A stretch of DNA of 64,000 nt. Origin: Trichormus sp. ATA11-4-KO1. GTDB taxonomy: Bacteria > Cyanobacteriota > Cyanobacteriia > Cyanobacteriales > Nostocaceae. Location: NCBI GenBank assembly GCA_019358915.1, contig JAHHIM010000036.1, positions 128,001-192,000 of the forward strand, written 5' to 3'. Both the position numbers and the translations under genes were made by a program. Under the pieces are notes generated by a model. That model searched no databases and was not told the origin of the DNA. It was given only the letters and a program-made list of their open reading frames with translations. The first letter of the stretch is position 1. Every line of letters begins with the position of its first letter. Shown in pieces: positions 1-31,414 of the stretch.

Positions 1-1
1 G

Positions 2-1757: not shown

Positions 1758-1794
1758 TTGCAAAATATCTGGGAATTTAGAGGGTTTTAATATC

Positions 1795-8583: not shown

Positions 8584-8663
8584 GCTTGTTTTTCTAAGCT
8601 GAATATAGATAGTCTACAAGTAAGCAAGTAGGTGCAATTCAAATCTCAATATACTCATGCCTC

Positions 8664-8727
8664 GTAGTGAGTGCTTTAGCGCTTATATTCAAGGTTTTCA
8701 GGGCTAGATCCACTGACTACAAACTTT
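8664..8727. repeat. 64-bp GTAG-type REP doublet, copy 2 (inverted relative to copy 1)
   Basis: Reverse complement of 7206-7269 with one mismatch. Confidence 0.9.
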
Positions 8728-8785
8728 CCTTTACTTAAATGAGACATAACCCAGCAATATTATCAAAATTTGTCAAATTAGGTAT

Positions 8786-10024: not shown

Positions 10025-10042
10025 AATTTGAAAGCATATTTT

Positions 10043-11338
10043 TTAAGTCAGAATTTCGGGATGAGTTTTATAAATTTTTATTGCTGCTAGACCTACACCA
10101 TACATTGTCCAGAGCCAAATACCACCTGTAGGCCCTTCAATAATTACTTCAAATGTTGTGACTGTCATACAAGCTACCCAATAAGCAAGCAGCGTCAAAA
10201 ATATTCCAGCCCATTTTGTTTGTCCTTTTGCTCTGCATTGCAAATACTTGGCTAGTATGGTTCCAGCCCAACTTAATTGAACCAGTAGCCACAGAACGAG
10301 GCCAGGAACACCAGTACGACCCAGAACTGTTATGTGCCCATTGTGCGGACTACGAACTATACCACCACCTATAGGATCAAAGCCGATTCCAGCACCCAAA
10401 TTGAAACCAAATCCTCTACCCGTCCAAAAGTAATCTCCAAAAATAGTAGTGTCGATTATGTATGTCCACCATTCTAAACGATACTCTTTTGAACCCTGTC
10501 TTTCTTGGTTATCAACAAAAATACTATTTATTCTTACAAACAAAGGTTCAAATATTTCTGGATTTATTATAAATAATACTAAAATTACAAATATTAAAAT
10601 TGTTAATATCTTCCAAATTTTACTATTTTTATACTTAGTAAAGCTGATAAAAGAAAAAGCATTTAAAAATGCCAAAATTCCTGATCTATTTGAACTAGTA
10701 CCAACCACAGCTAAATTTATTAGAAATACTAATATAAAAAATGCAGTTTGCAATCTCAATAAATTTGAGCCAATAAAAAATGCAGTAATTGTAGACAAGT
10801 GAGTCATTGTGTCAGCTGGTTTAAGAGTAATTATCTCAACAGCCGAACCAGGTACACGTGGTAATGATATTGTTCTTGATATTAACCAAATGAATGGCAT
10901 GAGAATAATAAAAATTCTGCTAAAACGTTCATATTGGTTAATTATAAAAGTAAAACGATGTGGTTTACCAACTAATAATGCAGCAATTATCAGGGCAAAA
11001 GAACAGTAATACCACAAAGCAGCATCACGTATTGAGTCTAAGCCATATTGAGGAAAATAGGGTATGGTGTTGATGCAACACCATAGCATAAATATTATTA
11101 GAAACCAGGTTTGAGGTAGTTTGAGTATTTTGGGAATGGATTTATTAATACTTAAAGTTATCAATCCAAATAATAGAGTAATTTCACCAATGTAAGCAGG
11201 AGGAATACCCCAGTAAGAAAAACCTCTACCACAAAGGGCATAACCTAGAAGAACCCAGCTATGCCAGGTTAAAAATTTATCGGCAAGTGCAAATTTTTTT
11301 CCAGATTTATTCGCTGAAACACTTGTCTCTCCTAGCAT
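10043..11338 (-). CDS. O-antigen ligase / Wzy polymerase family membrane protein
   Basis: About 10-12 hydrophobic segments; S.R.G motif and periplasmic loop GRGFG...RSPHNGHITVLGRTG with the conserved His. Confidence 0.8.
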   Translation of the reverse strand: MLGETSVSANKSGKKFALADKFLTWHSWVLLGYALCGRGFSYWGIPPAYIGEITLLFGLITLSINKSIPKILKLPQTWFLIIFMLWCCINTIPYFPQYGLDSIRDAALWYYCSFALIIAALLVGKPHRFTFIINQYERFSRIFIILMPFIWLISRTISLPRVPGSAVEIITLKPADTMTHLSTITAFFIGSNLLRLQTAFFILVFLINLAVVGTSSNRSGILAFLNAFSFISFTKYKNSKIWKILTILIFVILVLFIINPEIFEPLFVRINSIFVDNQERQGSKEYRLEWWTYIIDTTIFGDYFWTGRGFGFNLGAGIGFDPIGGGIVRSPHNGHITVLGRTGVPGLVLWLLVQLSWAGTILAKYLQCRAKGQTKWAGIFLTLLAYWVACMTVTTFEVIIEGPTGGIWLWTMYGVGLAAIKIYKTHPEILT

Positions 11339-11532
11339 CTTATTTTCTACCTGCTATAATTGGTTGTGAAATTTATTTAAGTAATTACGCTTTTGCCATT
11401 GAAACAAAGGGTAGAAACAAATAGCAATCTTAAATCATTATTCGTAGTGATTGATTTAGTGTTTAAGCTCAGGTTTAAAGCCTTTATCAGATACTTGGTT
11501 TTAATTTTATTTTGGCTGTTATTGACCTTAAT

Positions 11533-12711
11533 TTAAATTTTTGAGAACTTGCGACTAGAAACCAGTTCGTAAATTTCCATTATTCGGTGGTAGTTTTGCT
11601 GCGCTGTGTATTTGGCTATAAACTCAGCTCGTGCTTCTTGGCGCATCTGAGCAAGCATAATTGGATTTGCTATAGCCCACTGTACCTTAGATGCAAGATC
11701 CTCTGGGTCACCAGGAGAGAAATGTAAGCCTGTTCGACCAGATTCTATTAATTCTGCGATCGCTCCAATATTAGCAGCAATTACAGGGGTACCTTTGGCA
11801 AAAGCTTCAACTGCTACCCGACCAAAGGTTTCGTACCATTTGGAGGGGAAGATTAAAAACATTGCTTCCCCCATCAATTGATGTACTTCTGACATCGGTC
11901 TACGTCCTAGCCATTCCACCTTAGGCAATTTTTTTGCTGATTCCACTACCTCAGAAGCCAAGGGACCATCACCGACAATCTTTAAAGGGATTTTCCCTTC
12001 TAAAAGTTGCCAAGCAGCAAGCAGGGTATCTAATCCCTTTTCAGTAGAAAGTCTGCCTACAAAAAGGGCATAGCCACCAGAACCGCCACCGATACCAGGA
12101 TCTGGATGCACAAAGTTAGGCTTAACTACAATTTTTTCTGCGGGCAAACCACCTGCAATAAATTTTTGGCGTGCAAACTCAGTTAAACAAATGTAAACAT
12201 CTACCATTTCGCTCCATGTACGCATGGCACGATGCAAGGTTAACATTGTTGCTACAGCAACAGTTGCTGGGCGATTTTCGCGGTAGCAGCTATGTAAAAC
12301 TCCAGGATAGGGAACAAACTTCCCCAGACAATCTTCACAGACTTGCCCATCACGGAAAAATAAGCCATTAGGACAAAGGAGTCGGTAATTCCTTAGTGTC
12401 TGGACTACGGGTACACCTTCTGATTTGGCTGCGTAGTAAACAGATGGGGAAATCAGGGGGAAAAAATTTTGGATATGGACTAAATCGCAGTCAGACTGCC
12501 TAAGTTTTTTTTTAACTATGTTGTAAGACTCTGTTGACCAAACGGTTCTAAGTGCCATTGGTACAGCGCCAATAGCTGCTACCCGATCATTGTGTTCTTG
12601 GTAGACATCAACTTCATGACCCATTTCCCGTAATAGGCGTTCCTCTGACTCGCGGGATTCATCCTCCCCGCCACGAATTTGATAGTTGTTATGAACACTT
12701 AGGATTCGCAT
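11533..12711 (-). CDS. Glycosyltransferase family 4 (paralog of 7405-8583)
   Basis: HNNYQIRGGED, LFVGRLSTEKG, PSKWYETFGRVAVEAFA. Confidence 0.93.
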   Translation of the reverse strand: MRILSVHNNYQIRGGEDESRESEERLLREMGHEVDVYQEHNDRVAAIGAVPMALRTVWSTESYNIVKKKLRQSDCDLVHIQNFFPLISPSVYYAAKSEGVPVVQTLRNYRLLCPNGLFFRDGQVCEDCLGKFVPYPGVLHSCYRENRPATVAVATMLTLHRAMRTWSEMVDVYICLTEFARQKFIAGGLPAEKIVVKPNFVHPDPGIGGGSGGYALFVGRLSTEKGLDTLLAAWQLLEGKIPLKIVGDGPLASEVVESAKKLPKVEWLGRRPMSEVHQLMGEAMFLIFPSKWYETFGRVAVEAFAKGTPVIAANIGAIAELIESGRTGLHFSPGDPEDLASKVQWAIANPIMLAQMRQEARAEFIAKYTAQQNYHRIMEIYELVSSRKFSKI

Positions 12712-12726
12712 AGCTCTTGTTAGTGT

Positions 12727-13168
12727 TAGGACTTACGCAACTGGCACAAACAATGGGTGGTACGGGATTGGATAAGAGCAGAATATAACTCAAACTAATG
12801 TCATACGAATATCCGGCGTTTGAGTTGCTGAGCCAATAAGAATTAATTGCATCATGACTGATACTTTTCAAATGCTCTGCTAAATTAGTAATGGTATAAT
12901 TGACTTGACTGCTAAGTAAATACTGGCAATAATCTAATTTAGTGAATTTCATACTCAATAACCAGTCAGCGATTAATATCTATTAATTATTTTCCCAGAT
13001 CAAGCAAAATCCGTCTATTTTTAGAATTTATTATTTTTGGATATCAAAGTCTATTTTTACAGTTGTAACATTTGTTTTTTACCTAATTTTAGCTTTTTAA
13101 ACTAGTTTGATTATCGATGGTACGGCTACGCCGTACCGAGACTCATTGTGCCAGTTGCGTAAGTCCTA
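12727..13168 (-). mobile_element. Internally deleted IS701-like element (442 bp, non-autonomous)
   Basis: Perfect 23-bp TIRs TAGGACTTACGCAACTGGCACAA (12727-12749 and 13146-13168). Flanking direct repeat AGTGT (12722-12726, 13169-13173). Carries a transposase N-terminal remnant. Confidence 0.88.
12836..12952 (-). pseudogene. IS701-family transposase N-terminal remnant
   Basis: MKFTKLDYCQYLLSSQVNYTITNLAEHLKSISHDAIN resembles cyanobacterial IS701-family transposase N-termini; similarity is lost after about 40 aa. Confidence 0.75.
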
Positions 13169-13177
13169 AGTGTGTCT

Positions 13178-14431
13178 TTAAGCTAAAGCTTTACCACTGT
13201 AATCATTATCATGAATAATTGTTTCATAGAGCTGTGTTAAAGATTTAGCCTTCATATCCCAGTTAAAGAATTGAGCAACTCGCTTTTGTCCTACCTGACC
13301 CATCCTCACTCGTAATTCTGAGTCCTTAGCTAAACAAGCCATAACCTCAGCTAGGTCATGTATTGCTTGGGTGGGGGTGTTAGCCGGAACTTTGAAGCCT
13401 GTTTCTTCTGTGACCTGAACGGCTGGACCACCTAAATCTAAGCAAATCACTGGACGGCCTGCTGCCATTGCTTCTAAACAGACAAATCCTCCCGATTCAT
13501 GTAAACTTGGATGTACTAATACATGGCAGTTTCCTATCTTGCTTAAGGTCTGTTCCCTTGACAAATTACCCCAAAATTTAACTTGTTGAGCAATACCTAA
13601 TTGTTGAGCAATCATTTCCAGGCGTTGCTTCTCCAATCCCTCTCCTACAATCCAATACTCACAATCAGGGAGGTTGGCTTGAGCAAATGCCTTTAATCCC
13701 AAGTCAAATCCTTTCCAATGTAACAGTCTACCTACGCTGATAAACCTGAGAGGAAGATTGTCGGATATTGTGTAATTGGCGAGTTTGGCTAATTCTTCCT
13801 GCGATATCCCTAACTGAGAACATACCTGAACATTTTTAGCTCCTATCTTATGTAACCTTTGACTTGTATCATTGGTTGTCCCCCAAGCTAAGATACTGCG
13901 CCGCGCAGTCATACGAACAAAAGGGTCTTTTTCTCCAAGCCAACGCAACAAATTTCGTGCATACTCGTAAATTTTGCCACGAAGACTAAAATCCTCCCAA
14001 AATGCTTTTGGGGCAGACTCCCCACCTCCAACAGGACCCCAGATGAAGGGTATTGGTAGGAGTGAAAGAAAACTTGGTGATGAATACCTGACATAAGTTA
14101 TGTGATGTGCTAAATCAAAGCTGATATTACTGTGCAACTTGCGAGCAACCAAATAGGCTTTAATTTGCCAAATATAGTTGTGAAGATGTACTCCCCCAAT
14201 ACCTCGTTTCCACCATTTAGATCCGGGTAAGTCAACATACACAAATTTTATTTTAGATATGTAGTTATTATTTGTTAACTCAGCCTCAATAGATGTGCGA
14301 TTATCTTCTCGAGTCAGTACCCATACTTGATGATATTTAGCCAGTGCTTGAACTGTATTCCAACCTACTCCAGGTTCGGAACCCATATTCGGTCTACAGG
14401 AATAAGCAGACACTAAAATTTTTAAAGACAT
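13178..14431 (-). CDS. Glycosyltransferase family 4 (paralog of 8786-10024)
   Basis: SAYSCRPNMGSEPGVGWN; GRLLHWKG; HPSLHESGGFVCLEAMAAG. Confidence 0.92.
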   Translation of the reverse strand: MSLKILVSAYSCRPNMGSEPGVGWNTVQALAKYHQVWVLTREDNRTSIEAELTNNNYISKIKFVYVDLPGSKWWKRGIGGVHLHNYIWQIKAYLVARKLHSNISFDLAHHITYVRYSSPSFLSLLPIPFIWGPVGGGESAPKAFWEDFSLRGKIYEYARNLLRWLGEKDPFVRMTARRSILAWGTTNDTSQRLHKIGAKNVQVCSQLGISQEELAKLANYTISDNLPLRFISVGRLLHWKGFDLGLKAFAQANLPDCEYWIVGEGLEKQRLEMIAQQLGIAQQVKFWGNLSREQTLSKIGNCHVLVHPSLHESGGFVCLEAMAAGRPVICLDLGGPAVQVTEETGFKVPANTPTQAIHDLAEVMACLAKDSELRVRMGQVGQKRVAQFFNWDMKAKSLTQLYETIIHDNDYSGKALA

Positions 14432-14512
14432 TATTATCTAATCCATTACTATACTGAATTTCAACCAAAGTCTTGGGAAAATTTGATGCCTTGCGAACAA
14501 AAGGTATTGTTT

Positions 14513-15655
14513 TTAAACTTCATTTTCTAACACTGCTTCATAGATACCTTCCAAAATTTTGATTTGCTTAAAGTTATCAAAATTTTTTCGCATATTTTCC
14601 CGTCCTTTTAAGCTGAAGTATTGCCACTGTTCAGAGTTTTTCAATAACTGCAAAGCATATTCTGCAAGCGCTTGTGAATCTCTTTCGGTTGCCAAGAAAC
14701 CAGTTGTTCCATGAATAACTGCTTCTGGGATACCTGCATGAACTGTACTAATTACAGGGAGTCCCATAGCTTGAGCCTCAACAACAACTGTAGGCAATCC
14801 CTCCGAATCTCCTTCGATAGCAGTGACACTTGGTGCTGCAAGTAATTGAGCGCGATTCATCCAACTTTTAACAACATCTGAAGGCTGAAGTCCCAGAAAT
14901 TGATAGCGATAAAGCATTTTTGTTGCTTGTGCTTCTAAGTCTAACCGCAGAGGACCATCACCAATAATTACTAGTTTTACATTAGGAAGAACTGACTGCA
15001 CTTTAGCCATTGCCTTAATCAGGTATTCACACCCTTTCTTTTCTGTCAATCTCCCAACAAAAAGCACCACTGGCTCTCGTGGTACTGCTGGATCTGGTTG
15101 AAATTTATTAATATCTATCCCATCATAATGCGTAATAACTTTATTACTGGGAAACCCCTGTTCTAATAGTTTTGCTTTGATAAAATCAGAGACGGCAATA
15201 AACAACTGCGCTTCACGCTTAAGTGTTTCACGGCGGCGATAGTAAATCCAGTGGTTAAAGGAGGAATAGCGGGCGTACTCTTCTTTAACAGTGGCATCAG
15301 CACCTCGAAAGTGAACTAATAAAGGAATATTGAGGTTTTGTGCCAAAGGAAGTGCTAGCACCCCACTTAGCCCAAACTGGGCATTGATTAAAACGGGATT
15401 CACATGCTGAACTTGTCGATATAATTTAGGAGCAAATCCTGCAAGTTTGAATAACCCTTCTACTGATTGACCTAAAAACCCTCCTTGATTAACAACTAGA
15501 GTGCGTTCTGGAGGTAAGGTTAATCCTTTTACTAAACGTGAGCCTACGTAGTAAGGAGTAAAGTGTTGCAATTGTTCGCCCAACAAATCGCGAACAAAGG
15601 TTTGAGAAGGAGGAAGCAGTAAACTACTAAATATAACTATATTGGGTTTGACCAT
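14513..15655 (-). CDS. Glycosyltransferase family 4
   Basis: LFVGRLTEKKG; GDSEGLPTVVVEAQAMG. Confidence 0.92.
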   Translation of the reverse strand: MVKPNIVIFSSLLLPPSQTFVRDLLGEQLQHFTPYYVGSRLVKGLTLPPERTLVVNQGGFLGQSVEGLFKLAGFAPKLYRQVQHVNPVLINAQFGLSGVLALPLAQNLNIPLLVHFRGADATVKEEYARYSSFNHWIYYRRRETLKREAQLFIAVSDFIKAKLLEQGFPSNKVITHYDGIDINKFQPDPAVPREPVVLFVGRLTEKKGCEYLIKAMAKVQSVLPNVKLVIIGDGPLRLDLEAQATKMLYRYQFLGLQPSDVVKSWMNRAQLLAAPSVTAIEGDSEGLPTVVVEAQAMGLPVISTVHAGIPEAVIHGTTGFLATERDSQALAEYALQLLKNSEQWQYFSLKGRENMRKNFDNFKQIKILEGIYEAVLENEV

Positions 15656-15714
15656 GCCCTGGCTTTTACTCCTGTGACATATAGCAATTTAATTTCAACA
15701 TAATAATTGAACAT

Positions 15715-17055
15715 TTACAATTGTACTCCGTTAAATTCATCCCATGCTTTTTTAACTTTTTTACCTGATTCTAAAGCACGATTTCTTTCAGCAAGAACTT
15801 TCAGAAAGAGAGCAGAACTTATTTCAGGTAATTTTATCAAAAAATCATCTAATGAAGTTATTATAACTTCTTTATTTATTGTTTCAATATCTTGTACCCA
15901 TTCATCCATACCCAGTCTTCTAAATAATTCTTTTGTCTTAAATTCATAGGCAATAGGAAATACAGGAGTACCAGCTATCAAAGACAAGATGGCCATGTGC
16001 ATTCTTGTTGCTATAACTACATCATAATTTCTAATTATTCCTACTAGTTTTTTTGGAGAGTGAAAATCTTTATTCAAGTGAACTTGTTTTTGAATTTGAT
16101 TAGGAAGCAAATTAATAATTTCTTCAGCTACTTTTGAATCGTCAGTCCAATATTCAGGAATACCCTGGCAAGTAGAAATATATGTAATTTCAGCATTATA
16201 TTTCTCAATTAAATATTGAGTAACTTCACTCATGACTTCTACAAAATTTGTGAATCCATCTTTTTGACTAACTTTTGTGAAGTGATTCCAGTACCTCACC
16301 GAAATTGCTATTTTTACTCGCGAACTACTTACATTTTTTTTATAAATATCTTTGTGAAATCCCACATCATCGGTAAATGAAAATACTACATCTGAGCTAA
16401 TTAGCACTTTGTTCAGGTTAGCATTTATTTGTTTAAGATTATCATAAGATGCTTCATCCCGCAGCATAACAAGAGTAGACTTATTAAATATTTTTCTGAA
16501 TATATTTTGGTTTTTTATTTTATTAAATGGACCTAATGACTGGGTAAAAAACACTAGTGGTCGTCTCAGCATTAGTGTCATTTTATAATCGAATATCCTA
16601 GCTTTAAGTGAATATTTTTCTATTAGATATGTTCCACCTGTACTTACTACTAAATCAGCAGAACTGTAGTTTTTAAAATCTTGTATTTCTTCGCTATTTA
16701 ATAGAAATTTAACAGCAAAGTAGTTCTGATTTCTCCAGAGCCATACTGCTAAATATAGTCGAATAGGATTAATCATTAATATTATTTTTATAAAAATAAC
16801 CAAGAAATTTCTTACAGTAGATCCAAATAGAGACTTTCCTAAAAAATTCATAGAGGGAGGCTGTGTCGCTTTCAAATATACCAGTTTGCGAAATAATAAA
16901 TTAGAATAATATTTACTGGCTATTTCTGGCTGACTATCATAAATAATAATTTCTGTATCTTGACCAAATTCGAGACGAAGTAAGTCAACAATTGAAAAAA
17001 GAATAGCCGCGTCTCCACCATTCAAAGCGACAGTATTAGTGATAATTATTTTCAT
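15715..17055 (-). CDS. Polysaccharide pyruvyl transferase family protein (WcaK-like)
   Basis: N.GD.AI N-terminus, STGG, QSLGPF, LRDEAS, ATRMHMAILS, IAYEFK. Confidence 0.88.
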   Translation of the reverse strand: MKIIITNTVALNGGDAAILFSIVDLLRLEFGQDTEIIIYDSQPEIASKYYSNLLFRKLVYLKATQPPSMNFLGKSLFGSTVRNFLVIFIKIILMINPIRLYLAVWLWRNQNYFAVKFLLNSEEIQDFKNYSSADLVVSTGGTYLIEKYSLKARIFDYKMTLMLRRPLVFFTQSLGPFNKIKNQNIFRKIFNKSTLVMLRDEASYDNLKQINANLNKVLISSDVVFSFTDDVGFHKDIYKKNVSSSRVKIAISVRYWNHFTKVSQKDGFTNFVEVMSEVTQYLIEKYNAEITYISTCQGIPEYWTDDSKVAEEIINLLPNQIQKQVHLNKDFHSPKKLVGIIRNYDVVIATRMHMAILSLIAGTPVFPIAYEFKTKELFRRLGMDEWVQDIETINKEVIITSLDDFLIKLPEISSALFLKVLAERNRALESGKKVKKAWDEFNGVQL

Positions 17056-17417
17056 GATTTTTAACTGATTTCTAAGATAGAGTTGAATTCTTTGACAAAA
17101 TAAAATTTTGTTTTTAAATATGCAAAATTACAAGAATTTTGTAGTGTTTTTTATTGCTAGCAACTTTTGCATCCATATTAGTCTATTTTTTTGACCTATT
17201 GTCAGCTTAATCTACCCATAATGTAAATATAAAAGGGGCTAAATTCTTAAATCCTTCTTCTTTAATTGTATTTCAAGCTACTTTTGGAACTACATTTAAT
17301 TTAGTTTACAAGCATAGGGCAATACTAAAACTTTTAGTCTATTTTAATTTACTAATTTATGATGCCCATATGGGACACAGCACAGAAAACATTTTTGATA
17401 ATTAATGCTAAGAAAAA

Positions 17418-18566
17418 TTAGAACAATAGTTTTTTATACTCCTCTAAAGTAAAAGATGCAATTTTTTCCCACTGGAGATTGTCGAGCACATAATGCCTTC
17501 CTGCCAAACCCATTTCTTTCCACTCTGAACGGCGTTGAAGTAATTTTCCAATACCTGACTTAACATCTGATATGTTTGATGCAACTACAACACCACAACC
17601 GCTAGCTTCAACATGAGGTGCAATGCCTGCAATTTCCGAAACCAATAAGACCCGACCTGCTAGCATAGCTTCTACAGCAGCTAAACTAAAGCCTTCAAAA
17701 CGTGAGGGAATACAAAATACATCATGACTTTGTATAAGGAAAGAAGGAGATTTATCGAAATCAGGATTAAGAAATGAAACTTTTTTGTCAAGGTTTAGTT
17801 TTGCTACTTGTGCTTGTAAAGTCTGCTTATCTCCCCAATCTGGACCCTGTATTGTCAGATGAATATTTTCCTTTTCAGCAATTTGAGAAAAAGCATCTAT
17901 GAGGATATCTAATCCTTTATTATATGAATCTATACGGCCTAAGAAAAACAATTTGGCATTATCATTTTTTTGCCATTGCAGTGATGACTCCGGATAAACA
18001 TCTTTTGCAGAAAAACCATTATATACGGTTAAAACAGGAGTATTAACTTGCCGTTGATGTAGAAATTTAGCATGTCGAGAGTCCAGAACCTGAATAGCCT
18101 TTGCTTGCTTCAACATTTTTCGCTCAAAAAGGTACCAGTATGGTAACTTCAAATGAGCATTTTTACTAAAGATAGCAGGACTATAAGGATCATGTGGTGC
18201 GACAATATATGGCACTCCATACTTTTTTAGTATGCGAGACATGGAGTATACACCTGCATGAAAGATGCCATTCAGAATTACAAGGCTTTTGTCATCTAAA
18301 TAATCGCGAATGTAGTTTTGCAAATCAAATGCAATATTGAATTTTCGTGGGTTCATATTTGAGCTACCAAAAGCTATAATTTCATAGCCAGATTGGGTTT
18401 CATACAAACCTTGCTTCGATGAGTGTGTTTCACATAGGACTTTTACTCTAGCTCCGCAGTTGACTAACCCTGAAGCCAATCCATGTACAGCCTTAATTGT
18501 TCCCTGTGGTAGCATTACTTTATCACCCAATGGTGGAAAGTTTTTTAGATAAAAATAAATATTCAT
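17418..18566 (-). CDS. Glycosyltransferase family 4
   Basis: FLGRID..KGLD; PSRFEGFSLAAVEAM. Confidence 0.9.
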   Translation of the reverse strand: MNIYFYLKNFPPLGDKVMLPQGTIKAVHGLASGLVNCGARVKVLCETHSSKQGLYETQSGYEIIAFGSSNMNPRKFNIAFDLQNYIRDYLDDKSLVILNGIFHAGVYSMSRILKKYGVPYIVAPHDPYSPAIFSKNAHLKLPYWYLFERKMLKQAKAIQVLDSRHAKFLHQRQVNTPVLTVYNGFSAKDVYPESSLQWQKNDNAKLFFLGRIDSYNKGLDILIDAFSQIAEKENIHLTIQGPDWGDKQTLQAQVAKLNLDKKVSFLNPDFDKSPSFLIQSHDVFCIPSRFEGFSLAAVEAMLAGRVLLVSEIAGIAPHVEASGCGVVVASNISDVKSGIGKLLQRRSEWKEMGLAGRHYVLDNLQWEKIASFTLEEYKKLLF

Positions 18567-18777
18567 AGCTTACCATTGAAGAGATTTTGATATTTAAACT
18601 TAACCTATTCTTAATTTGAATTAAGTCTTGAAACAATCGCAATTTCGCAATTAGTTCCAAAATAATATTTTTGGACGAGTTCGGAAACCCTTGTAGTACA
18701 ACAAGCATTTACATGTTATGTAATAAAATGTAACTTGCATTTAAACGTGTAATATGATTACTTACTACATATCTTAC

Positions 18778-19641
18778 TCAAGCCAAACCTAACCACCCTT
18801 GCATCCTACCTTGAAATGTAAACCAATAAGATCGAACTTTATCTAAACGACCTTGTAAAAGTGATATTGCTATTCCCATCAATGGGCGAACCCAATTATA
18901 AATCACGAACCACAAGGGAGCTTTATGTTTACGAAGAACGCGACCTCTACCCATTGCGTAAGCATAAGTTTTGGAATAGGTTGCATTTTTGCTGGCTTTA
19001 ATAAGTTGGATAGGTTCTGATGGTGTTAACTTGATTGGATGAATTACAGTTATCGAGGGTTCGTAATATAAGCCAGTGTTAATTGCACGCAACAAGTAAT
19101 CAGTTTCCTCAGCGGAACCCCAAGGTGTATTTGCTCCAACTCCTAAACTTTCATCAAATTTACCTACCTGCATTACAGTAGCTCGGCGAAGAAATATAGT
19201 ATACGAAATACCCCTTCGCCACACATTAAATTGGTTAATTAATCCAGGTGGACTGCCAAGATGTCTACCAGAGTCTCTACCTTGCTCATCAATAGAACTT
19301 CCTGTTAAACCATTTAACTCGGGATGATTAATAAAAAAACTCGCTACACGCTCAAGAATATCTGGTGGATAAGCGCAATCATCATCAGGGAAAGCCACAA
19401 TATCACCATTAATCTGCTCCAAAGCAACATTACGAGCGCGGGAAAGCCCTGGGGCTGAACGCAGGTGTATGATGGGATATCTATGCTGATAAATCTGGAT
19501 AAATTTTACAAGGCGGTCATCTGGATTTTGATCTACAACAATCAAATCAAAGCTACGATAAGTTTGACAATCTAAAATTTTTAAAAAATTTTCAACCTCA
19601 GCAGTACGATTTAAAGTTGCTAGAATTAGGGAAAACTTCAT
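18778..19641 (-). CDS. Glycosyltransferase family 2
   Basis: IVVDQN, GLSRARN, FPDDD (DxD). Confidence 0.92.
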   Translation of the reverse strand: MKFSLILATLNRTAEVENFLKILDCQTYRSFDLIVVDQNPDDRLVKFIQIYQHRYPIIHLRSAPGLSRARNVALEQINGDIVAFPDDDCAYPPDILERVASFFINHPELNGLTGSSIDEQGRDSGRHLGSPPGLINQFNVWRRGISYTIFLRRATVMQVGKFDESLGVGANTPWGSAEETDYLLRAINTGLYYEPSITVIHPIKLTPSEPIQLIKASKNATYSKTYAYAMGRGRVLRKHKAPLWFVIYNWVRPLMGIAISLLQGRLDKVRSYWFTFQGRMQGWLGLA

Positions 19642-19701
19642 GATTTTACTTCCTATTAATTAGTTACAAGTGCTACCACTTTCAGGTTTATGGTAAAGCT
19701 G

Positions 19702-20694
19702 TTACTTTGCTATTAAGTAAAATTTATCCTTGAATTTAATTAAATTTTTATGTCCTTCACGTCCGAATATTATTAATATCAATCCAGTTAATATGTATGT
19801 TCCAGAAATAGGTAAGAATTGCAATAAACTAAGTGTGTAACGTAAAGCTAAAAATCTATTATTTGCATCAACCGCTTTTCCTAATCGATTTACTTGTATA
19901 ATTGAAGTTTTTAACCCTACACACTCACGATAACCTTTATATCCAAGATGCTGTTTTATAATTGAACCCCACTTATTTTCAAATATATGAAAACCTTGCA
20001 AGTTAGCTGATAGATTGCCTCCAATTTGCTTATTATGAAAATATCTGATGATTAATGGTTCGTTCACAGTAAGAAAGTGATTATTAGCTTGAGCTAAACT
20101 TAGCCATAGGTCATAATCTTGAAAGCTAGGTAACCTTTCGTCAAAGCCACCGACATCTATTAAAGCGGAGCGCTTAATCATAAAAAGGGATGTAGTTGGA
20201 GGTAACCATCCTCTTAATAAATGATTAAAAACATCCCCCTCATGGGCAATCAAATTTGGCAGTTTCTTGCGTTGGATTGATTCATAATATTCATATCCCG
20301 AACAATAAACTACAGTGGCATGAGGATTATCACTAGACTGGAGACGAGCTAACTGTAATTCTAGTTTTCTGGGTAGCCATTCATCATCACTATCTAAAAA
20401 AGCTATATAGTCTGCACGCGCTGCTTTAATACCTTGATTTCGTGCATGGCTACCACCGCAATTTTTTCCTAAAGGTAAAAATCTAATTCGTGGATCTATA
20501 AAGTTCTTAACTACTTCATCTGTATTATCTGTAGAACCATCGTCTACAATAATTAATTCAAAATTTGAAAATGTCTGTGCAAGAACGCTAGAGATCGCTC
20601 TTGGTAGTAGATTAGCTCGGTTAAAAGTGGGTATGACAACACTAACAGTTAGCTGATTTTCAAGTGTTAACGACACGTTGCCTGAAACTGCCAT
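19702..20694 (-). CDS. Glycosyltransferase family 2
   Basis: VSVVIPTFNR, VDDGSTD, FLDSDD. Confidence 0.95.
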   Translation of the reverse strand: MAVSGNVSLTLENQLTVSVVIPTFNRANLLPRAISSVLAQTFSNFELIIVDDGSTDNTDEVVKNFIDPRIRFLPLGKNCGGSHARNQGIKAARADYIAFLDSDDEWLPRKLELQLARLQSSDNPHATVVYCSGYEYYESIQRKKLPNLIAHEGDVFNHLLRGWLPPTTSLFMIKRSALIDVGGFDERLPSFQDYDLWLSLAQANNHFLTVNEPLIIRYFHNKQIGGNLSANLQGFHIFENKWGSIIKQHLGYKGYRECVGLKTSIIQVNRLGKAVDANNRFLALRYTLSLLQFLPISGTYILTGLILIIFGREGHKNLIKFKDKFYLIAK

Positions 20695-20746: not shown

Positions 20747-22012
20747 CTAGTTAGTCAAAGCAGCTAAGTTTTTAACTAAGGCTATAACTTGAGAACGAAT
20801 TTTTTCCATTTCAAATAGATTGATTAATTCAGACTGTCGTTTAAACTCGTCGTCTTCCAAAATTTTTAGTACTTGCAATACAACTTGTTCATTTAGTACA
20901 GATACTGTATGTTTAGATATCCCCAAAGTCGAAAAAAAATTTTCTATTTTGGGACCGACAAAAAGCCCTAGCACCGGAACACCCTCAGCAAGAGCCAAAA
21001 TAGCTGAGTGTAACCTAGTAGCAAGGACAGCTGTACTAGAACGCATCAAAGTTCTAAGTTGCTCAACATTGGTGCAAACATGAAGGCTACTACTAGATGT
21101 TGACAACTGGCTGAGTATAATTTTCGCTCGTTTAATATCTCCTGAATTACCAGTTGTGAACAACTTGACACAAGATTGGTTGTTTCCTGAATGTTTATCT
21201 AACCATGCGTTAATTATTTTACAAAGGACATCATCATACCTAGATTGGTAATGGGAAACGTGCTTTTTGTAAGCCATTACATTTACAGCTAATATTTGCT
21301 GGTTTGAAGTATGTGGCATTAATTGCCTTGGCTTGATTGCAAGTAAGGCAAAATCACCAAAAACTGGAACCTGAGTTCCTAGTCTTTGTGACAAACGGTT
21401 TGCTGTATTATGGTCTCTTGTAGCTATAAAATAACAAGATTTAGCAAAGGCAGTAATTATTTTTTCACCTTGTTTAGACCATTCAGTTTCTGCACTACAG
21501 CCTAGACAGATTAGTGGAATTTGAAGCTTTTTAGATGCCCACATAATTGTAGATAGAGATTGGGGAAAATGCAAATCCGTATCTGATAGCAATGCTCCAC
21601 CTCCAACCATAATTACTTGAGCATTTTTTAGCTTTGGTATGAGCTTTTGTATTCGGATGCGCTGAATTATTGGTCTAAGTCCTCGTTTTAAAATTTTAGT
21701 TAGTTCTATCTTTAAACTATAAAAATTGCTGGGAGAAGAAATGTTTTTGAAAGATGAGTATGGGGTCTTATAGTTCATTTCTTTAGGAAAATAGACTTCA
21801 CCAGACTTTTCGTGCGAAGAGAGTAGATGTATGGGATTTTGAACAGGTTTTAAAGTTCCAAAATTATAGGCATCAACACTGTAACCAGCCTTTTGAAAAA
21901 ATTCAGTCACACCTTGACAAATAGCTCTGTCCCCCAAATTTGTAGTGTTCCATTCTCCAAATGCAGCAATTTTTATATCTTTGCTTTTATCCACTTCCAT
22001 ATTTTTATCCAA
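20747..22012 (-). CDS. Polysaccharide pyruvyl transferase family protein
   Basis: NLGDRAI, VGGGALL, TRD, ATRLHSAILAL. Confidence 0.82.
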   Translation of the reverse strand: MDKNMEVDKSKDIKIAAFGEWNTTNLGDRAICQGVTEFFQKAGYSVDAYNFGTLKPVQNPIHLLSSHEKSGEVYFPKEMNYKTPYSSFKNISSPSNFYSLKIELTKILKRGLRPIIQRIRIQKLIPKLKNAQVIMVGGGALLSDTDLHFPQSLSTIMWASKKLQIPLICLGCSAETEWSKQGEKIITAFAKSCYFIATRDHNTANRLSQRLGTQVPVFGDFALLAIKPRQLMPHTSNQQILAVNVMAYKKHVSHYQSRYDDVLCKIINAWLDKHSGNNQSCVKLFTTGNSGDIKRAKIILSQLSTSSSSLHVCTNVEQLRTLMRSSTAVLATRLHSAILALAEGVPVLGLFVGPKIENFFSTLGISKHTVSVLNEQVVLQVLKILEDDEFKRQSELINLFEMEKIRSQVIALVKNLAALTN

Positions 22013-22060
22013 AATTAAATTTATTTATTGTTAATATTTATTTGTTCTCATAAGTAATTA

Positions 22061-22906
22061 TCAATCAACTTTAATTAGTTCAAGAGCAGTTTTTTGCCTA
22101 GTTACGAAATGTAAAAAATTAGCTATTTTAATCAGAAGAATTATTGAATAAGTACTATGAGACTTGTTGAGTATCCAGTTACTTGTTTTAGGAGAAAACA
22201 TAGCTCTACCAATGGAGACACCTTTAAGCTTTTCAAGTATACTGAAGTTAGCATTTTTGAATACAGAGCCACAGTTAGGTGCCGTATTATCTTGATGTTC
22301 TTTTGCCCAAATTTGTCTTGAGACTAAAGGATTGTCATTAAATTCTGTTCGTTCAAACTTGAAAACCGCACTTAATATCAGTTTAGAATGTATACCAGTA
22401 AATATCGTCTCTCTATAACCTCGCACAATTTGATTATTTTGAAGTGTTTTAATACATCCATTCTCAAAGAAAGTTACACTTTCAACAAAATCATATATTG
22501 TACATCCATATTGTCTCCCTCTACCAGCATTCATTGCTAATGCACCTCCAATCGTTGCCGGGACAGACGCAAGATAATAAAAAGAATTCATGGAGTTTTG
22601 GTAACAGTGTTTTAAAACCTCCATGATTAAAACTGAAGAAGATATTTCTAATTTATCTTCAGTTAAAGAATTTATGTACTTAGGTAGTTTGTTTTTTAGT
22701 ATCAATGATTTGATATTTTTTTTCACGAACAAGGTATTGGAGCCATTTCCAATTATGTAAATGTTTACTTTGTTTTCTTTTGCCCAAATACAGTACTCAC
22801 GGAGGTCATCTAAACTACTAATTTCTCCTACTCGCTCAAAATGATGGCGAGTTCTATAGTGAGAAAGACTAGTTGATGTTAAAGACTCAATTTTTAAATT
22901 AGACAT
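22061..22906 (-). CDS. MurB-like FAD-dependent enolpyruvyl reductase (divergent, inside the polysaccharide cluster)
   Basis: MurB motifs IIGNGSNTLF, VPATIGGALAMNAG, GYRETIF, PNCGSVFKN and a C-terminal LE. Confidence 0.82.
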   Translation of the reverse strand: MSNLKIESLTSTSLSHYRTRHHFERVGEISSLDDLREYCIWAKENKVNIYIIGNGSNTLFVKKNIKSLILKNKLPKYINSLTEDKLEISSSVLIMEVLKHCYQNSMNSFYYLASVPATIGGALAMNAGRGRQYGCTIYDFVESVTFFENGCIKTLQNNQIVRGYRETIFTGIHSKLILSAVFKFERTEFNDNPLVSRQIWAKEHQDNTAPNCGSVFKNANFSILEKLKGVSIGRAMFSPKTSNWILNKSHSTYSIILLIKIANFLHFVTRQKTALELIKVD

Positions 22907-22917
22907 CTTCTCTCTTT

Positions 22918-24090
22918 CTACTCCTTGCTACACTCAACCTTATTTTTATTACGGTCTGCTCCTTCTGTAATTGCTTCCAGTAAATATTTTTTTGATTCCA
23001 AAATTTTTAATTCCAAAACTTTAGACACTATTTCATAGTCTATATCAAAAGCTTTTTCTTTTACTTGGGATATAGTATTTTCTGAAAATATCCTATCTTC
23101 CAATGATAAATCTCTAAGTAAATCGGTTACTTTGTTCGATTTGTTGCTAGGAACAAATACACTAAAAGGTTTTTGAAAAATAATTGCAAATATAGTTCCA
23201 TGATAAGTATTAGTTACAATGTATGATGCTTGGCTGAACGCTCCAATCCATTCCTGTGGACAAGCATTTTCTAGATTCACTTTTGCTACTTGATTACATT
23301 TACCAATTGAAACTATATTTAATCCATGACGTTCTGCTATTGATTTCACTAAATCCTCCTCAGTCGAAGCTAATTCATCCTGGTTATAAATTAAAAGATA
23401 TTTACCTTCTATTTTGGGAATATGTTTAATTGCATCATAGTTAATTAAAAACGTAGGATCTAAAACTTTTTTAGCTACCATATTACATTGATTTACAATT
23501 ATTCGCTCGCTGTTAGAATCACGAACCAAAATCGTTTGAAATTGATTAACTAGATTACATATTTCTTCTCGATGATTATTTAGTACTGTTAACTCGCCAA
23601 AACTAGCTGCATAACTTATCTTACGGGTAGCTTGATTATTAACAAAATCTAAAAAGAAAGAGGCATCAAATCCTCTGATAGAATTGAGAGACCATATTTG
23701 ATCACTACCGCATATTACTACATCATATTTACTATTAAAGTGTTGCAAGCCTTTTTTTCTATAAAATTTCCTCTGGCTTAACCTGACGTGGGAAAGCAAA
23801 AATTGCCTGATTTTCCAAGCTCTAGAAATATTGACGAATATCTTTTCATTAATATGGAGTTGATGAATACTAAGCTTTTGACTTTCATGAATGCTAAGTT
23901 TTTTCCTTCTGATAGGTCTTAAACTTTTTGTATAGTATCTAACTGCCCTATAAGGCCTATAGTCTATTATTTCAACGTCATAGCCTTGACTGTTAAGGAA
24001 ATTCCATAGAGCATAAGCTTGAAGTGTTGCCCCGTAGTTATCTATATGGTGAAAAGTTATAATTCCTATTTTCATCTTTGCTGTCTCCAA
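22918..24090 (-). CDS. Polysaccharide pyruvyl transferase family protein
   Basis: KIGIITFH..NYGATLQAYAL, GSDQIW, ISYAASFG, VRD, LDPT, TYHGTIFAIIF. Confidence 0.9.
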   Translation of the reverse strand: METAKMKIGIITFHHIDNYGATLQAYALWNFLNSQGYDVEIIDYRPYRAVRYYTKSLRPIRRKKLSIHESQKLSIHQLHINEKIFVNISRAWKIRQFLLSHVRLSQRKFYRKKGLQHFNSKYDVVICGSDQIWSLNSIRGFDASFFLDFVNNQATRKISYAASFGELTVLNNHREEICNLVNQFQTILVRDSNSERIIVNQCNMVAKKVLDPTFLINYDAIKHIPKIEGKYLLIYNQDELASTEEDLVKSIAERHGLNIVSIGKCNQVAKVNLENACPQEWIGAFSQASYIVTNTYHGTIFAIIFQKPFSVFVPSNKSNKVTDLLRDLSLEDRIFSENTISQVKEKAFDIDYEIVSKVLELKILESKKYLLEAITEGADRNKNKVECSKE

Positions 24091-24289: not shown

Positions 24290-25798
24290 TTATATCTTTT
24301 TTTTTCTTTTAAGCTTGATGTTTACAAAATCGGTTAAGCCAAGAATCTTTTTGAAAAGCTTTGGTGATATTACAAAAACGATAAAAATATAACTTAAAGT
24401 ACCAACTAAGATTAAACTAGCTGTTAATAACTTCATTTCAATGCCAATAAATGTTACCAATAAATATTTAATAGCTATCATACTTCCAATCATCCCTAAA
24501 GAAGCTACTAAAGGTACCATATATAAACGCAAATATTGAATAAAATTAAGTTTAACCAATTTGTGAATAGCCACCAGTGAAATAGGTAAGAGTAGATAAC
24601 CACGAATTACATAAGCAGATGCTACAGCTAAGATACCCCATTTTACTACTAGTATAAAAGATACGACATTAACAACTGTATTTATAATTTGTATCCATAA
24701 CCTCCAGGCGGGTTTGCCCAATGCCATAATCACAGAACTGTTATAGAAGGCAATTATATGAACAGGCCCAATAAGTGCTAGAACTTGCATTACTGGAATA
24801 CTTTGAGTCCATTGCTTACCAAATAAAATTTGGACTAATTCAGGTGCCAAAACTGTGAAGCTAAGAAACATCGGAAAAGCAATGGTACTACCAACTTCAG
24901 TAACATTATAGAAAGCTTTTATTAACCGTTCTGGTTCTCCCTGCAATCTAGAAAATACCGGGAATGCAACTTTACCTATCGTACTAATTAAAACTTGTGT
25001 CATTACTTGTAATATTCTGTAAGCAACAGAGTAATAACCTAGTGCAACTGATCCAAGGTAGCGTCCAATGAGTAAATCATCTGACCTACGATTAAAAAAG
25101 TTAATTATACTAAACGCAGTTACATTAATGCCAAAAGCATAAAGTTCTTTAGCATGAATGGCTGAAAATTTAAATCCTGGTCGCCAATCGCTAACTCGCC
25201 ACAAAACCAAAACCTGCAATAAGCTATTAGATATTTGTTGACCCACGAGGCTCCAAACTCCAAAGTTTAGAAAAGCCATTCCTACACCAACCATTCCACC
25301 GAATACAACTGCGATTAGTGAACGTATTGCTAAAGTCTTGAAAGCAAGATTACGTGTAAGAATAGCGCTTTGTACACTGCTTAAACCACTAAATATAAAA
25401 CTTATTGATAAGTACTGAATAATTGGTGTTAATTGGGGTTGGTCAAAGAAATTAGCAGCTAATCCGGCACAAGATATACTTAATACGGTCAAGAATACAC
25501 TAATTGTTAAAGTTGTCCAGAAGGCTGTATCTAGGTGTTCTGCTTCTAATTCTTGACGTTGGATAAGTGCTTGAGAAAATCCTTGATCAAGAAAAATTTG
25601 CACAAATCCAAGAAAAACTGAAGCTAAAGCAACTAGACCAAAAATTTCTGGATTGAGTAACCGAGCTAGAACGAAGAAAACAATTAAGGAAACTCCTTGG
25701 CGTCCCCAATTTTCAATAGCAGACCAAGCTAAACCTTTAACTGCCTGTTTTCGTAAATTTGATGGCTTTTCAGGTGATTCCATTATCGGATTTACCAA
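24290..25798 (-). CDS. wzx: MOP-family polysaccharide flippase (Wzx-like)
   Basis: LARLL.PE.FG motif, about 12-14 TM segments, G.YSVAYR. Confidence 0.88.
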   Translation of the reverse strand: MVNPIMESPEKPSNLRKQAVKGLAWSAIENWGRQGVSLIVFFVLARLLNPEIFGLVALASVFLGFVQIFLDQGFSQALIQRQELEAEHLDTAFWTTLTISVFLTVLSISCAGLAANFFDQPQLTPIIQYLSISFIFSGLSSVQSAILTRNLAFKTLAIRSLIAVVFGGMVGVGMAFLNFGVWSLVGQQISNSLLQVLVLWRVSDWRPGFKFSAIHAKELYAFGINVTAFSIINFFNRRSDDLLIGRYLGSVALGYYSVAYRILQVMTQVLISTIGKVAFPVFSRLQGEPERLIKAFYNVTEVGSTIAFPMFLSFTVLAPELVQILFGKQWTQSIPVMQVLALIGPVHIIAFYNSSVIMALGKPAWRLWIQIINTVVNVVSFILVVKWGILAVASAYVIRGYLLLPISLVAIHKLVKLNFIQYLRLYMVPLVASLGMIGSMIAIKYLLVTFIGIEMKLLTASLILVGTLSYIFIVFVISPKLFKKILGLTDFVNIKLKRKKKI

Positions 25799-26000: not shown

Positions 26001-26795
26001 TCAGTCACCTGTTCCCAGGAAACCCCCTGCAAAACGACTTGATGAAAGCATCTGTTTAGTCGCCAACCAAATAAAGGGCGGAATTGTTGTACCATAACGC
26101 CGCCAGAGTCGGCGCGGCTCTTGAACCCAGCGATAAAGCCACTCAAACCCTAGGTCTCGAACTATGCGGGGTGCGCGCTTTTGAATGCCTGCATAAACAG
26201 GGAAAACCCCACCCACGCCAATCATGACTGCCTGAATTTTATCTTGATGCTGAGCCATCCACTTTTCTTGTTTTGGACACCCCAGGGATACAAAAACTAC
26301 CCCAGCGCCACTGGAGTTAACTGTATTTATTAAAGCCTCGTCTTCAGTCTCAGTTAGAGGGCGAAAAGGTAAAGGTTCCATCGCCGCTACTTTTAGCTTA
26401 GGAAATTCATCTTCTAGACGTTCTCTCATCCTAGAAAGAATTTCGGTTTGCGAACCAACAAAGAAAACACTGACATTTTGCGTTTGAGCTTTTTCACACA
26501 AAGCTAGAAAAAGATCCATTCCCGCGACACGGTCTTGGTAACGCGCCCCCATATACCTCATCATCCACACGAGGGGCATACCATCAGGGGTCACTAAATC
26601 TGCATTGTGTAGTACGTTAGCAAACTCTGGATTCCAGTGAGCTTCCATCAGCATGTGTACATTCGCTACACATACAGCTTTACTCTCACGAGCGATCGCC
26701 CACCTCAGTATTGTTTGTATCTGATCATCAAAGCGCAAAGCAGTAATAGGGAAATCAAGCACTTTTTGAGTAGGCAGAAAAGTTCTTCCTACCAT
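26001..26795 (-). CDS. WecB/TagA/CpsF family glycosyltransferase
   Basis: ANVH, PDGMP, RVAGMDL, LGCPKQE, GFEWLYR..QEPRRLWRRY. Confidence 0.95.
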   Translation of the reverse strand: MVGRTFLPTQKVLDFPITALRFDDQIQTILRWAIARESKAVCVANVHMLMEAHWNPEFANVLHNADLVTPDGMPLVWMMRYMGARYQDRVAGMDLFLALCEKAQTQNVSVFFVGSQTEILSRMRERLEDEFPKLKVAAMEPLPFRPLTETEDEALINTVNSSGAGVVFVSLGCPKQEKWMAQHQDKIQAVMIGVGGVFPVYAGIQKRAPRIVRDLGFEWLYRWVQEPRRLWRRYGTTIPPFIWLATKQMLSSSRFAGGFLGTGD

Positions 26796-28304: not shown

Positions 28305-28955
28305 TTAGTTTAAAGTAACTAAACTAGAGTCCACATTTTGTAGCTGGGTACAGCCACTGAGAGCCATTGCCACGTTTAACTCATTTTGTAGCAGCGAAAT
28401 GACATGAGATACACCGGCTTGTCCTCCTACTGCTAGTCCCCACAAAATAGGTCGTCCTATCATTAAGGCTTTTGCTCCTATTGCTAGGGCTTTGAGAATG
28501 TCTGTACCTCTGCGGATACCTCCATCTAATAGCACCTCTACTCTGCCATCTACTGCTGCTACTATCTCAGTTAAAGCATCTAAAGAGGCGATCGCTCCAT
28601 CTAGTTGTCTGCCACCATGATTGGAAACTACAATTGCCTTAGCTCCATACTCCACAGCACGCACAGCATCATCTCCCCGCAAAATTCCTTTGATTACCAA
28701 AGGTAGTGGTTGCCCTAAAATAGAGGTACTAAGATAGCGATCGCTTACATCTACCAATATCCGAGGTCTGAGTTTAATTCGCTCAAAGGCAGTACGATTA
28801 TCTCGCAGTGTGATTTCATCCCCAGCGCCACTACTGTAGTAATCAAAAGCCATCTGAGACAGATGCTTTTTTGCTAGCTGTTCGTATTCAAATAAGTTAA
28901 TGGGTTGGCAATAATCATCGTTTGCTAAAGCTGGTAAGCTCACCAATTGCGCCAC
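28305..28955 (-). pseudogene. FMN-dependent alpha-hydroxy acid (lactate/glycolate) oxidase with large in-frame internal deletion
   Basis: N-terminus ([24 protein letters not shown]) joins directly to the C-terminal half ([27 protein letters not shown]). The IAPMA...WFQLY...LTVD block is missing; 216 aa versus about 360 typical. Confidence 0.8.
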
Positions 28956-30064: not shown

Positions 30065-31414
30065 CTACTTAGAAGCTAATTCTGCATCTGTTGACACTTC
30101 GCCTACGCGCCGGATTTTAGCTCCTAATTGCTGTAACTTGAGATCAATTTGGTCATAGCCACGATCAAGGTGGTGTAATCCCTGAACTGTAGTTTGTCCT
30201 TCGGCTGCCAATCCTGCTAAAACTAATGCTGCTGATGCCCGTAAGTCTGTACCTATTACTGGTGCGCCCGATAACATTGGTACTCCCCTAACAAAAGCGG
30301 CATTGCCTTTAACACGAATGTCTGCTCCCAAGCGATTCAACTCGGAGGCATGACGCAAGCGATTTTCAAAGACAGATTCATTAATCAGGCTGTCACCTTC
30401 AGCCAATGCCAGCAAGGCCATAAATGGGGCTTGCATATCTGTAGGAAAGCCAGGATGAGGTAAGGTTTCGATGTCCCTGGCTCTGAGAGTTTCTGCTGGC
30501 AGGATGCGTAAGCAATCTGGCGCATCCTCAATAATCGTCACTCCAATTTCCCGCAGTTTGGCAATTATTGGGATTAAATGGTCTGGTAACACTGGCGACA
30601 GACTAATTTCTGAACGGGTAATAGCTCCAGCAACCAAGAACGTTCCTGCCTCAATGCGATCAGGGATAATGCTGTAGTCGATAGAATGCAGCTGGGCAAC
30701 ACCAGCGATTGTAATCTTACTACTGCCTGCACCCTGAATTTTAGCTCCCATGGCATTACAAAAATTTGCCAGATCGACTACTTCTGGCTCCCGCGCGGCG
30801 TTTTCAATGATTGTTTCGCCATCTGCGAGAGTGGCGGCCATCATCAAAGTTTCCGTTGCTCCTACACTGGGGCTGTCTAGGTAAATTGTGGCTCCTTTTA
30901 ATCTGCCATTACTACCAGGAACATAAGCATTACAGATACCATGCTCAATCTGCACTTCGGCTCCCATTGCTTGCAGTCCTCGGACATGCAAATCAACAGG
31001 CCTAGCACCAATTGCACAACCACCTGGTAATGGCATTTGTGCCACTCCTAGCCGTGCCAAAATTGCCCCAATGGCAAAAAAACTTGCCCGTAGTTGGGTA
31101 ACTAGTTCGTAAGGAGCTTTTGATGTGGTAATTTCGCTGGCATTGATATCTAAAATGTCGCCTTGTCGTGTTAGGCGCACACCCAAAGCTGATAAAACCT
31201 GACCCATCCGCTCGACATCCGCTAATAAAGGCACATTACGGATACGACAATCACCTGAACACAGCAAAGAGCCAGCCATGATCACCAATGCTGAATTTTT
31301 GGCCCCGCTAATTTTCACATGCCCTCGCAAAGGATGCCCACCCCATATTTGCAAGACTGAGGAGTCTGCTTCAGGAGAAAGCTTGGCATCTGGTAAGCTG
31401 CTAGAAGGATTAAT
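30065..31414 (-). CDS. murA: UDP-N-acetylglucosamine 1-carboxyvinyltransferase (probable ATT start at 31414; ORF track starts at TTG 31354)
   Basis: [42 protein letters not shown]. Confidence 0.97.

Follow-up and report, generated by a model that had tools for sequence, protein, structure and literature searches.

Lactyl (1-carboxyethyl) ethers occur outside peptidoglycan in O antigens, capsules (for example, those of Klebsiella K22, K37, and K66), and cyanobacterial exopolysaccharides (EPS). The available text of a review of Escherichia coli O antigens lists lactyl groups for O58, O69, O124, O146, and O150 and ketals for O112ac, O149, and O156, gives UDP-GlcLA for O124, and attributes the lack of the O124 lactyl group in O164 to a wfeP frameshift. 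Transfer followed by reduction may already have been proposed from the E. coli genes (Knirel 2017; Liu 2008). In the accessible part of a 2019 review on pyruvylation, MurA and NikO are the only cases given of enol-pyruvylation, MurB and lactyl groups go unmentioned, and the characterized PF04230 enzymes all make ketals. A Klebsiella capsule paper, in the portion available, reports that K8, K22, K37, and K66 have pyruvyltransferase genes but no pyruvylation. Here we compare these systems with a locus in a 64,000-nucleotide stretch of DNA from Trichormus sp. ATA11-4-KO1 (contig JAHHIM010000036.1, positions 128,001 to 192,000; referred to as the window), in which the gene for a MurB paralog, designated MurB*, follows a gene for a PF04230-family pyruvyltransferase (Pvt), designated PvtB. 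Sequence comparisons suggest, with a probability of about 0.78, that PvtB and MurB* form a lactyl-ether module in which enolpyruvyl transfer would be followed by MurB-type reduction.

The genes of immediate concern are in the order wzx > PvtB > MurB* > PvtA on the minus strand:

24290-25798, minus strand: wzx, Wzx flippase (PF13440/PF01943)
22918-24072, minus strand: PvtB, PF04230 transferase (PF04230, 147 bits; open reading frame from TTG 24090, ATG 24072 preferred)
22061-22906, minus strand: MurB*, MurB-fold flavin adenine dinucleotide (FAD) reductase paralog, 281 amino acids (PF01565, 39 bits; PF02873, 27 bits)
20747-22012, minus strand: PvtA, PF04230 transferase, predicted ketal type (PF04230, 105 bits)

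The likely start of PvtB, ATG 24072, has GGAG upstream and yields a protein of 384 amino acids. The gap between PvtB and MurB* is 11 bp (22907-22917), and that between MurB* and PvtA is 48 bp. The initial annotation described a divergent MurB with FAD-binding and GSVFKN motifs, 11 bp downstream of one Pvt gene and upstream of another, within an EPS cluster that had three such genes. Coordinates and Pfam domains agree with this description; the third PF04230 gene, PvtC, sits among GT2, GT4, Wzy, and WecG genes.

The association of MurB* with a PvtB-type transferase recurs well beyond the window. A PvtB relative was present in 38 of 39 MurB* genome loci, no more than 500 bp away in 37 of them, and the sole locus without one begins at a contig end. 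Two local profiles split 80 metagenome loci into 7 with MurB* and 73 with housekeeping murB, and a Pvt gene was found near 3 of the 7 but near none of the 73 (0/35 when both flanks were 2 kb or longer), the local Pvt profile favoring the PvtB type. The co-occurrence of this MurB clade with pyruvyltransferases, which the initial annotation had put forward as a check, is therefore borne out by the counts (38/39 genome loci versus 0/73 housekeeping metagenome loci). Pvt was directly upstream in all three plasmid matches labeled FAD-binding protein that were examined (among 20 records), which were from Natrinema pellirubrum, Cetobacterium somerae, and Novosphingobium, and the MurB*-Pvt pair recurs in the first two, a haloarchaeon and a fusobacterium. 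N. pellirubrum, as an archaeon, has no peptidoglycan. The two proteins are also naturally fused (P0240, PF04230 plus MurB*, in a cluster of 3). Among 251 genomes of the window's family, MurB* was found in 10 and a PvtB-clade gene in 21, and all 10 were among the 21; a phylum-wide search with a single MurB* protein, in which 3 of 401 matched, was too insensitive to define the range. The wzx gene lies beside the pair in many loci, as it does beside Pvt in the E. coli O69, O150, and O124 clusters. Conservation of the gene arrangement across loci indicates that it is not due to chance. The conserved unit is the two-gene module of PvtB and MurB*, with PvtA outside it.

MurB* is an accessory MurB paralog. 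It matched PF02873 only narrowly and scored under the cutoffs of all seven murB models (for example, 99.2 versus 144.5 for TIGR00179), and its GSVFKN motif occupies residues 213 to 218. The predicted model (predicted local distance difference test score of 97.5) has the three-domain MurB fold, and the top 14 among the Foldseek matches listed were all MurB, with template modeling scores of about 0.84 (range, 0.77 to 0.86). The same genome carries, on contig C1, a housekeeping murB of 332 amino acids that adjoins murC and is 28% identical to MurB*. The separate murB called for in the initial annotation is thus present, and MurB* is not the genome's only murB. Five of five relatives tested also had their own housekeeping murB. 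Recent duplication of the housekeeping gene as the origin of MurB* was ruled out by FastTree, which set the housekeeping rows apart from MurB* by a branch with a support of 98. The closest relatives are Nostoc proteins (78 to 84% identity).

For a comparison of residues, 101 MurB* rows (9 homologs plus 92 hand-picked from the top 150) were aligned with 74 housekeeping rows. Within the MurB* rows, R165 was kept in 100/101, Ser, Thr, or Cys at position 214 in 100/101, and E276 in 101/101. R165 and S214 align with Staphylococcus aureus R188 and S238, and E276 shares a column with the Glu of 73/74 housekeeping rows (compare E308); this Ser and this Glu are catalytic in MurB. The column of S. aureus His271 is His in 74/74 housekeeping rows versus Thr in 78/101 MurB* rows, that of Arg225 is Arg in 70/74 housekeeping rows versus Ser, Ala, Val, or Cys in MurB*, and R197 is newly present in 90/101 MurB* rows. 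In the available text of PMC11990925, Arg225 and His271 of S. aureus MurB are described as essential substrate/NADP residues, and a role for Arg188 is likewise described. The catalytic Arg/Ser/Glu set is kept while the substrate-site columns are changed, so the reducing machinery of MurB* appears to be retained and its binding site altered.

PvtB is 29 to 33% identical over its full length to the transferases of E. coli O69, O150, and IAI1; PvtA had no similarity to the O69 transferase. In an IQ-TREE tree of 30 PF04230 rows, for which the program gave a long-branch warning, PvtB and every reductase-linked Pvt formed a 19-row clade (support, 95/94) that excluded WcaK, CsaB-like, O156, PvtA, and PvtC proteins, with PvtC grouping with E. 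coli WcaK (96/91). The clade has GSDQ/E and [ST]-[FYL]-H motifs (GSDQ and NTYHG in PvtB) in place of the GGG and R-[LM]-H of other PF04230 proteins, the latter being present in WcaK, O156, CsaB-like proteins, PvtA (RLH; R-x-H in 99/106 PvtA homologs), and PvtC (RMH). The residues of the phosphoenolpyruvate (PEP) site, matched to those of CsaB by motif, are kept: R184 (VRD), H291, and K/R314 were each found in 31/31. The available text of PMC10435577 reports that the Arg of R-x-H is docked to PEP in CsaB and Pvg1p. This Arg is absent from the PvtB clade, and its loss is a candidate for what turned ketal formation into enol ether formation. PvtB has a GT-B fold; a structure search with the predicted fold gave generic GT-B matches only, the PvtB alignment had no real match among PDB sequences, and the comparison with the CsaB model gave 24.6 versus 213 bits.

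By motif and tree, PvtA and PvtC are ketal-type enzymes, which probably add ketals to the polymer of the same cluster. PvtA had no counterpart in the other loci compared, and this, with its dissimilarity to the O69 transferase and its ketal-type motif, ruled it out as the MurB* partner. Of the two transferase genes that flank MurB*, the upstream one is its partner, and PvtA is a bystander. The lactyl-ether pathway proposed in the initial annotation is supported in part, by the membership of PvtB in the transferase subfamily of lactyl-bearing E. coli O antigens and by the presence of MurB* in N. commune, with the partner narrowed to the upstream gene.

The position occupied by MurB* is filled by other flavoenzymes elsewhere. 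The comparison of lactyl serogroup clusters took in O69, O150, and the O124/O164 family; three DNA searches with distant queries did not reach the clusters of O58 and O146. The O69 cluster has an FrhB-like gene, wzx, and Pvt, whereas the O150 cluster has a nitroreductase, wzx, and Pvt. The O124/O164 family has wzx, an FrhB-like gene, and Pvt, the last of which is split in 3/6 genomes (the serogroup of each genome is not annotated); this split fits the reported O164 wfeP frameshift with lactyl loss. In the ketal serogroup O156, Pvt is present with no reductase in the cluster. Among the 11 family genomes with a PvtB-clade gene but no MurB*, six have a nitroreductase no more than two genes away, and in a seventh it is on a separate contig; these cyanobacterial nitroreductases near PvtB are 31 to 34% like that of E. 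coli O150. The nitroreductase query matched in 1/9 other MurB* genomes (28%) and found nothing in the window's Trichormus genome, and an FrhB-like partner is not in the window's cluster, the genome's sole FrhB match being on another contig. The slot beside a PvtB-type Pvt is shared by three or more unrelated flavoenzymes, of the MurB-fold, FrhB-like, and nitroreductase types.

Several further loci bear on this slot. E. coli IAI1 has a galF-gnd cluster (L145:6217-8681), without a serogroup label, with an FrhB-like protein and a reductase-linked Pvt, from which a lactyl ether is predicted. E. coli SE15 was rejected as an O150 strain because it carries O16 genes, and the MurB* gene of Cetobacterium, used as a DNA query against E. 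coli genomes, gave no match. The Novosphingobium plasmid (L046:9725-10819) encodes a 364-amino-acid FAD_binding_4 protein, not of the MurB* clade, that overlaps a Pvt of the reductase-linked type and is perhaps a fourth reductase type. A ferredoxin/FrhB-like protein is fused to MurB* in P0236 (674 amino acids) and P0286 (678 amino acids); candidate readings are that the FrhB-like part is an electron donor for MurB* or that each chain has two reductases. In P0149 (cluster of 14), a PurN-like formyltransferase is fused to MurB*.

A product is suggested by Nostoc commune, whose EPS does contain nosturonic acid, as the initial annotation stated. The published text available gives this sugar as (R)-3-O-lactyl glucuronic acid, with the structure from strain DRH-1, and proposes that it shapes the rheology of N. 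commune colonies and the flux of water through them. The MurB* clusters include proteins of N. commune NIES-4072 and of another N. commune record. In Nostoc sp. CCCryo 231-06, with a MurB* 95.7% identical to the NIES-4072 protein, there are just two PF04230 genes, one for PvtB, next to MurB*, and the other CsaB-like. The nitroreductase query had no match in this genome, and its single FrhB match was on another contig. The MurB product is an (R) ether. In E. coli, reference titles in the part of the review available indicate (S) lactyl for O150, with its nitroreductase; for O69, with its FrhB-like protein, the order of words points to (R). These two serogroups suggest that the reductase sets the lactyl configuration. 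An (R) configuration for the ether of the MurB* pathway is somewhat favored; production of nosturonic acid itself by the window's Trichormus is possible, albeit with the odds against it.

In the proposed pathway, PvtB, with its GT-B fold, would transfer enolpyruvate from PEP onto one sugar hydroxyl and leave an enol ether rather than close a ketal. MurB* would then reduce the C=C of the enolpyruvyl ether with a flavin hydride and a proton from Ser/Thr, in the manner of MurB in MurNAc synthesis, a step proposed because the catalytic residues are kept. The reduction would most likely give an (R) lactyl ether. Either a nucleotide sugar or a lipid-linked repeat unit of the Wzx/Wzy exopolysaccharide may serve as acceptor, with 3-O-lactyl glucuronic (nosturonic) acid as the leading candidate in Nostoc, and Wzx would export the lactylated repeat. 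For comparison, the acceptor of CsaB is lipid linked, according to the available text of PMC10435577.

Several observations weigh against this pathway. The equivalents of Arg225 and His271 are replaced in MurB*, and MurB* may thus differ in activity or in its use of cofactors. The alignment excluded fragments and rows likely to be housekeeping, and hand-picking from the top matches biases the residue counts toward the clade. The MurB* genome loci are mostly from Nostoc, and related genomes are not independent; MurB* is also patchy within the family (10/251). Only three of the seven metagenome MurB* loci have Pvt, and of the four misses just two are short contigs. Two of the three long-flank metagenome loci (L059 and L060) have no Pvt and lie amid sulfatase, rhamnosidase, and heparinase genes. 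Neither MurB* nor a nitroreductase was found with the queries used in 4 of the 21 PvtB-clade genomes, three of which are in one genus. The three structure-linked E. coli clusters carry other reductases, not MurB*, and none of the MurB* loci could be matched with a glycan structure solved for its own strain.

Of three alternatives, all improbable, the one that survives best, by a narrow margin, is that MurB* acts as an additional UDP-MurNAc reductase supplied by the housekeeping MurA, providing muramic acid for EPS or a peptidoglycan backup, and that PvtB is an independent ketal transferase. The genome's sole murA is in the window (30065-31354), on the strand of the module and some 6 kb upstream of it, and the MurB fold is intact. 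However, in distant taxa, one of them an archaeon, MurB* is linked to Pvt rather than to murA; the Pvt-MurB* fusion exists; a nitroreductase replaces MurB* in the same slot; and the substrate-site residues are altered.

It is about as improbable that MurB* is a co-inherited sugar oxidoreductase or editing enzyme (for example, for lactyl or pyruvyl removal) with no role in lactyl synthesis. The Pvt-less relatives in degradative loci, the fusions to the formyltransferase and the FrhB-like protein, and the four PvtB genomes in which no reductase was found are in its favor, but the degradative copies are on their own branch (support, 97), and MurB* interchanges with reductases of lactyl-bearing E. 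coli clusters. Those relatives (L059:5929-6843 and L060:5962-6819) lie among sulfatase, alpha-rhamnosidase, and heparinase-like genes, branch with P0149, and possibly strip lactyl ethers by the reverse reaction in polysaccharide breakdown. The PvtB loci in which no reductase was found (L197-L199 and L204, in G519, G493, G458, and G572) may yield an enolpyruvyl polysaccharide that stays unreduced or may rely on another reductase; a 302-amino-acid open reading frame in one was rejected as the reductase because it is GT2-like. Equally hard to sustain is the formation of an ordinary ketal by PvtB that MurB* opens reductively to the lactyl ether: the characterized PF04230 enzymes all make ketals and the substrate site of MurB* is remodeled, but MurB* retains the Arg/Ser/Glu set of enol-ether reduction, the PvtB clade lacks the R-x-H Arg docked to PEP in CsaB and Pvg1p, and C=C reductases, such as the vinyl reductase BciB, are known among the FrhB-family and nitroreductase-fold enzymes.

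A broader extension of the two-enzyme module is tentative and, taken jointly, falls somewhat short of even odds. The PF04230 subfamily with GSDQ and [ST]-[FY]-H would be a convergent GT-B-fold enolpyruvyl transferase, paired with any of three unrelated flavoenzymes that make non-peptidoglycan lactyl ethers and set their stereochemistry, (R) for the MurB paralog and FrhB-like proteins and (S) for the nitroreductase. PvtB and MurB* would be the missing nosturonic acid pathway of N. commune, reaching into archaea, and the free-standing MurB* of degraders would run backwards, stripping lactyl groups.

The remaining features of the polysaccharide cluster are as follows:

26001-26795, minus strand: WecG/TagA glycosyltransferase, cluster head (PF03808)
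15715-17055, minus strand: PvtC, WcaK-like PF04230 transferase, predicted ketal type (WcaK models)
7405-20694, minus strand: rest of the Wzx/Wzy polysaccharide cluster, with six GT4, two GT2, and a Wzy_C protein (Pfam scan)

The position of the WecG/TagA gene upstream of the module is conserved in other loci, and murA is at the equivalent position in several Nostoc loci. The G+C content is 30 to 31% at 22 to 25 kb versus 42 to 48% in the upstream genes, and a promoter scan gave 25 sites versus 29.9 expected. A second PvtB-MurB* pair, in a genome of the same genus (L167:11221-13189, G416), is 29 to 31% identical to that of the window and in a different cluster, which points to a separate acquisition. 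On Nostoc flagelliforme plasmid pNFSY08 (L151:5158-8162), a flippase and Pvt are followed by only residues 1 to 54 of MurB*, among transposases. An open reading frame of 216 amino acids at 28305-28955, presumably related to FMN alpha-hydroxy-acid oxidases, matches 373-amino-acid proteins of relatives at about 80 to 89%, and an internal deletion therefore seems to be present. At the EPS cluster end (5734-7176), a 480-amino-acid open reading frame with a signal-peptide-like start is presumably glycoside hydrolase-like. Presumed kinase-like, ABC transporter, and nucleotidyltransferase-like open reading frames behind an asparagine-synthetase-like tail (1-5210, plus strand) resemble cyanobacterial lasso-peptide clusters.

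The initial annotation knew of no described gene basis for the lactyl ether. In E. coli, such a basis has been documented in part (wfeP), with other reductases, and none was found for a MurB paralog: a literature search, with most subscription papers outside its reach, returned no paper on a MurB paralog in a lactyl-ether role and none giving nosturonic acid genes, nor did the available text of PMC12679510 and PMC13721041 give such genes. The PvtB-MurB* pair is thus probably a variant of a kind of module known from E. coli genetics, with a MurB-type reductase undescribed for it in the searchable literature. As a gene candidate, the locus offers two soluble enzymes for a known sugar of Nostoc slime without explained genes. 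The PvtB motif separates likely lactyl from ketal "pyruvyl transferases," the MurB* clade is flagged among proteins that databases label as the peptidoglycan enzyme, and the partner reductase gene predicts (R) or (S) configuration.

Compared with MurA/MurB (MurB, EC 1.3.1.98), MurB* is alike in its MurB fold, FAD motifs, and catalytic Arg/Ser/Glu, and the proposed route likewise has a PEP-derived enol ether followed by reduction. In contrast, the transferase here is a GT-B PF04230 protein, not MurA, and MurB* falls under the equivalog cutoffs, has its Arg225 and His271 equivalents replaced, and is an accessory protein tied to polysaccharide clusters. The glycolactilic acid genes of E. coli O69, O150, and O124/O164 (wfeP) share the PF04230 subfamily of PvtB and lie next to wzx and a flavoprotein gene, but their reductase is FrhB-like (O69 and the O124 family) or a nitroreductase (O150) rather than the MurB paralog of Trichormus. 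PvtB shares PF04230, the VRD Arg, and the PEP-binding His and Lys positions with CsaB, WcaK, Pvg1p, and O156 Pvt, and differs from these ketal pyruvyltransferases, which PvtA and PvtC match, in having GSDQ and [ST]-[FY]-H for GGG and R-x-H and a reductase partner. The nosturonic acid structure is from DRH-1, whereas the MurB* genes are from other N. commune strains and, here, from Trichormus; nevertheless, this sugar matches the predicted product type, in a species that carries MurB*.

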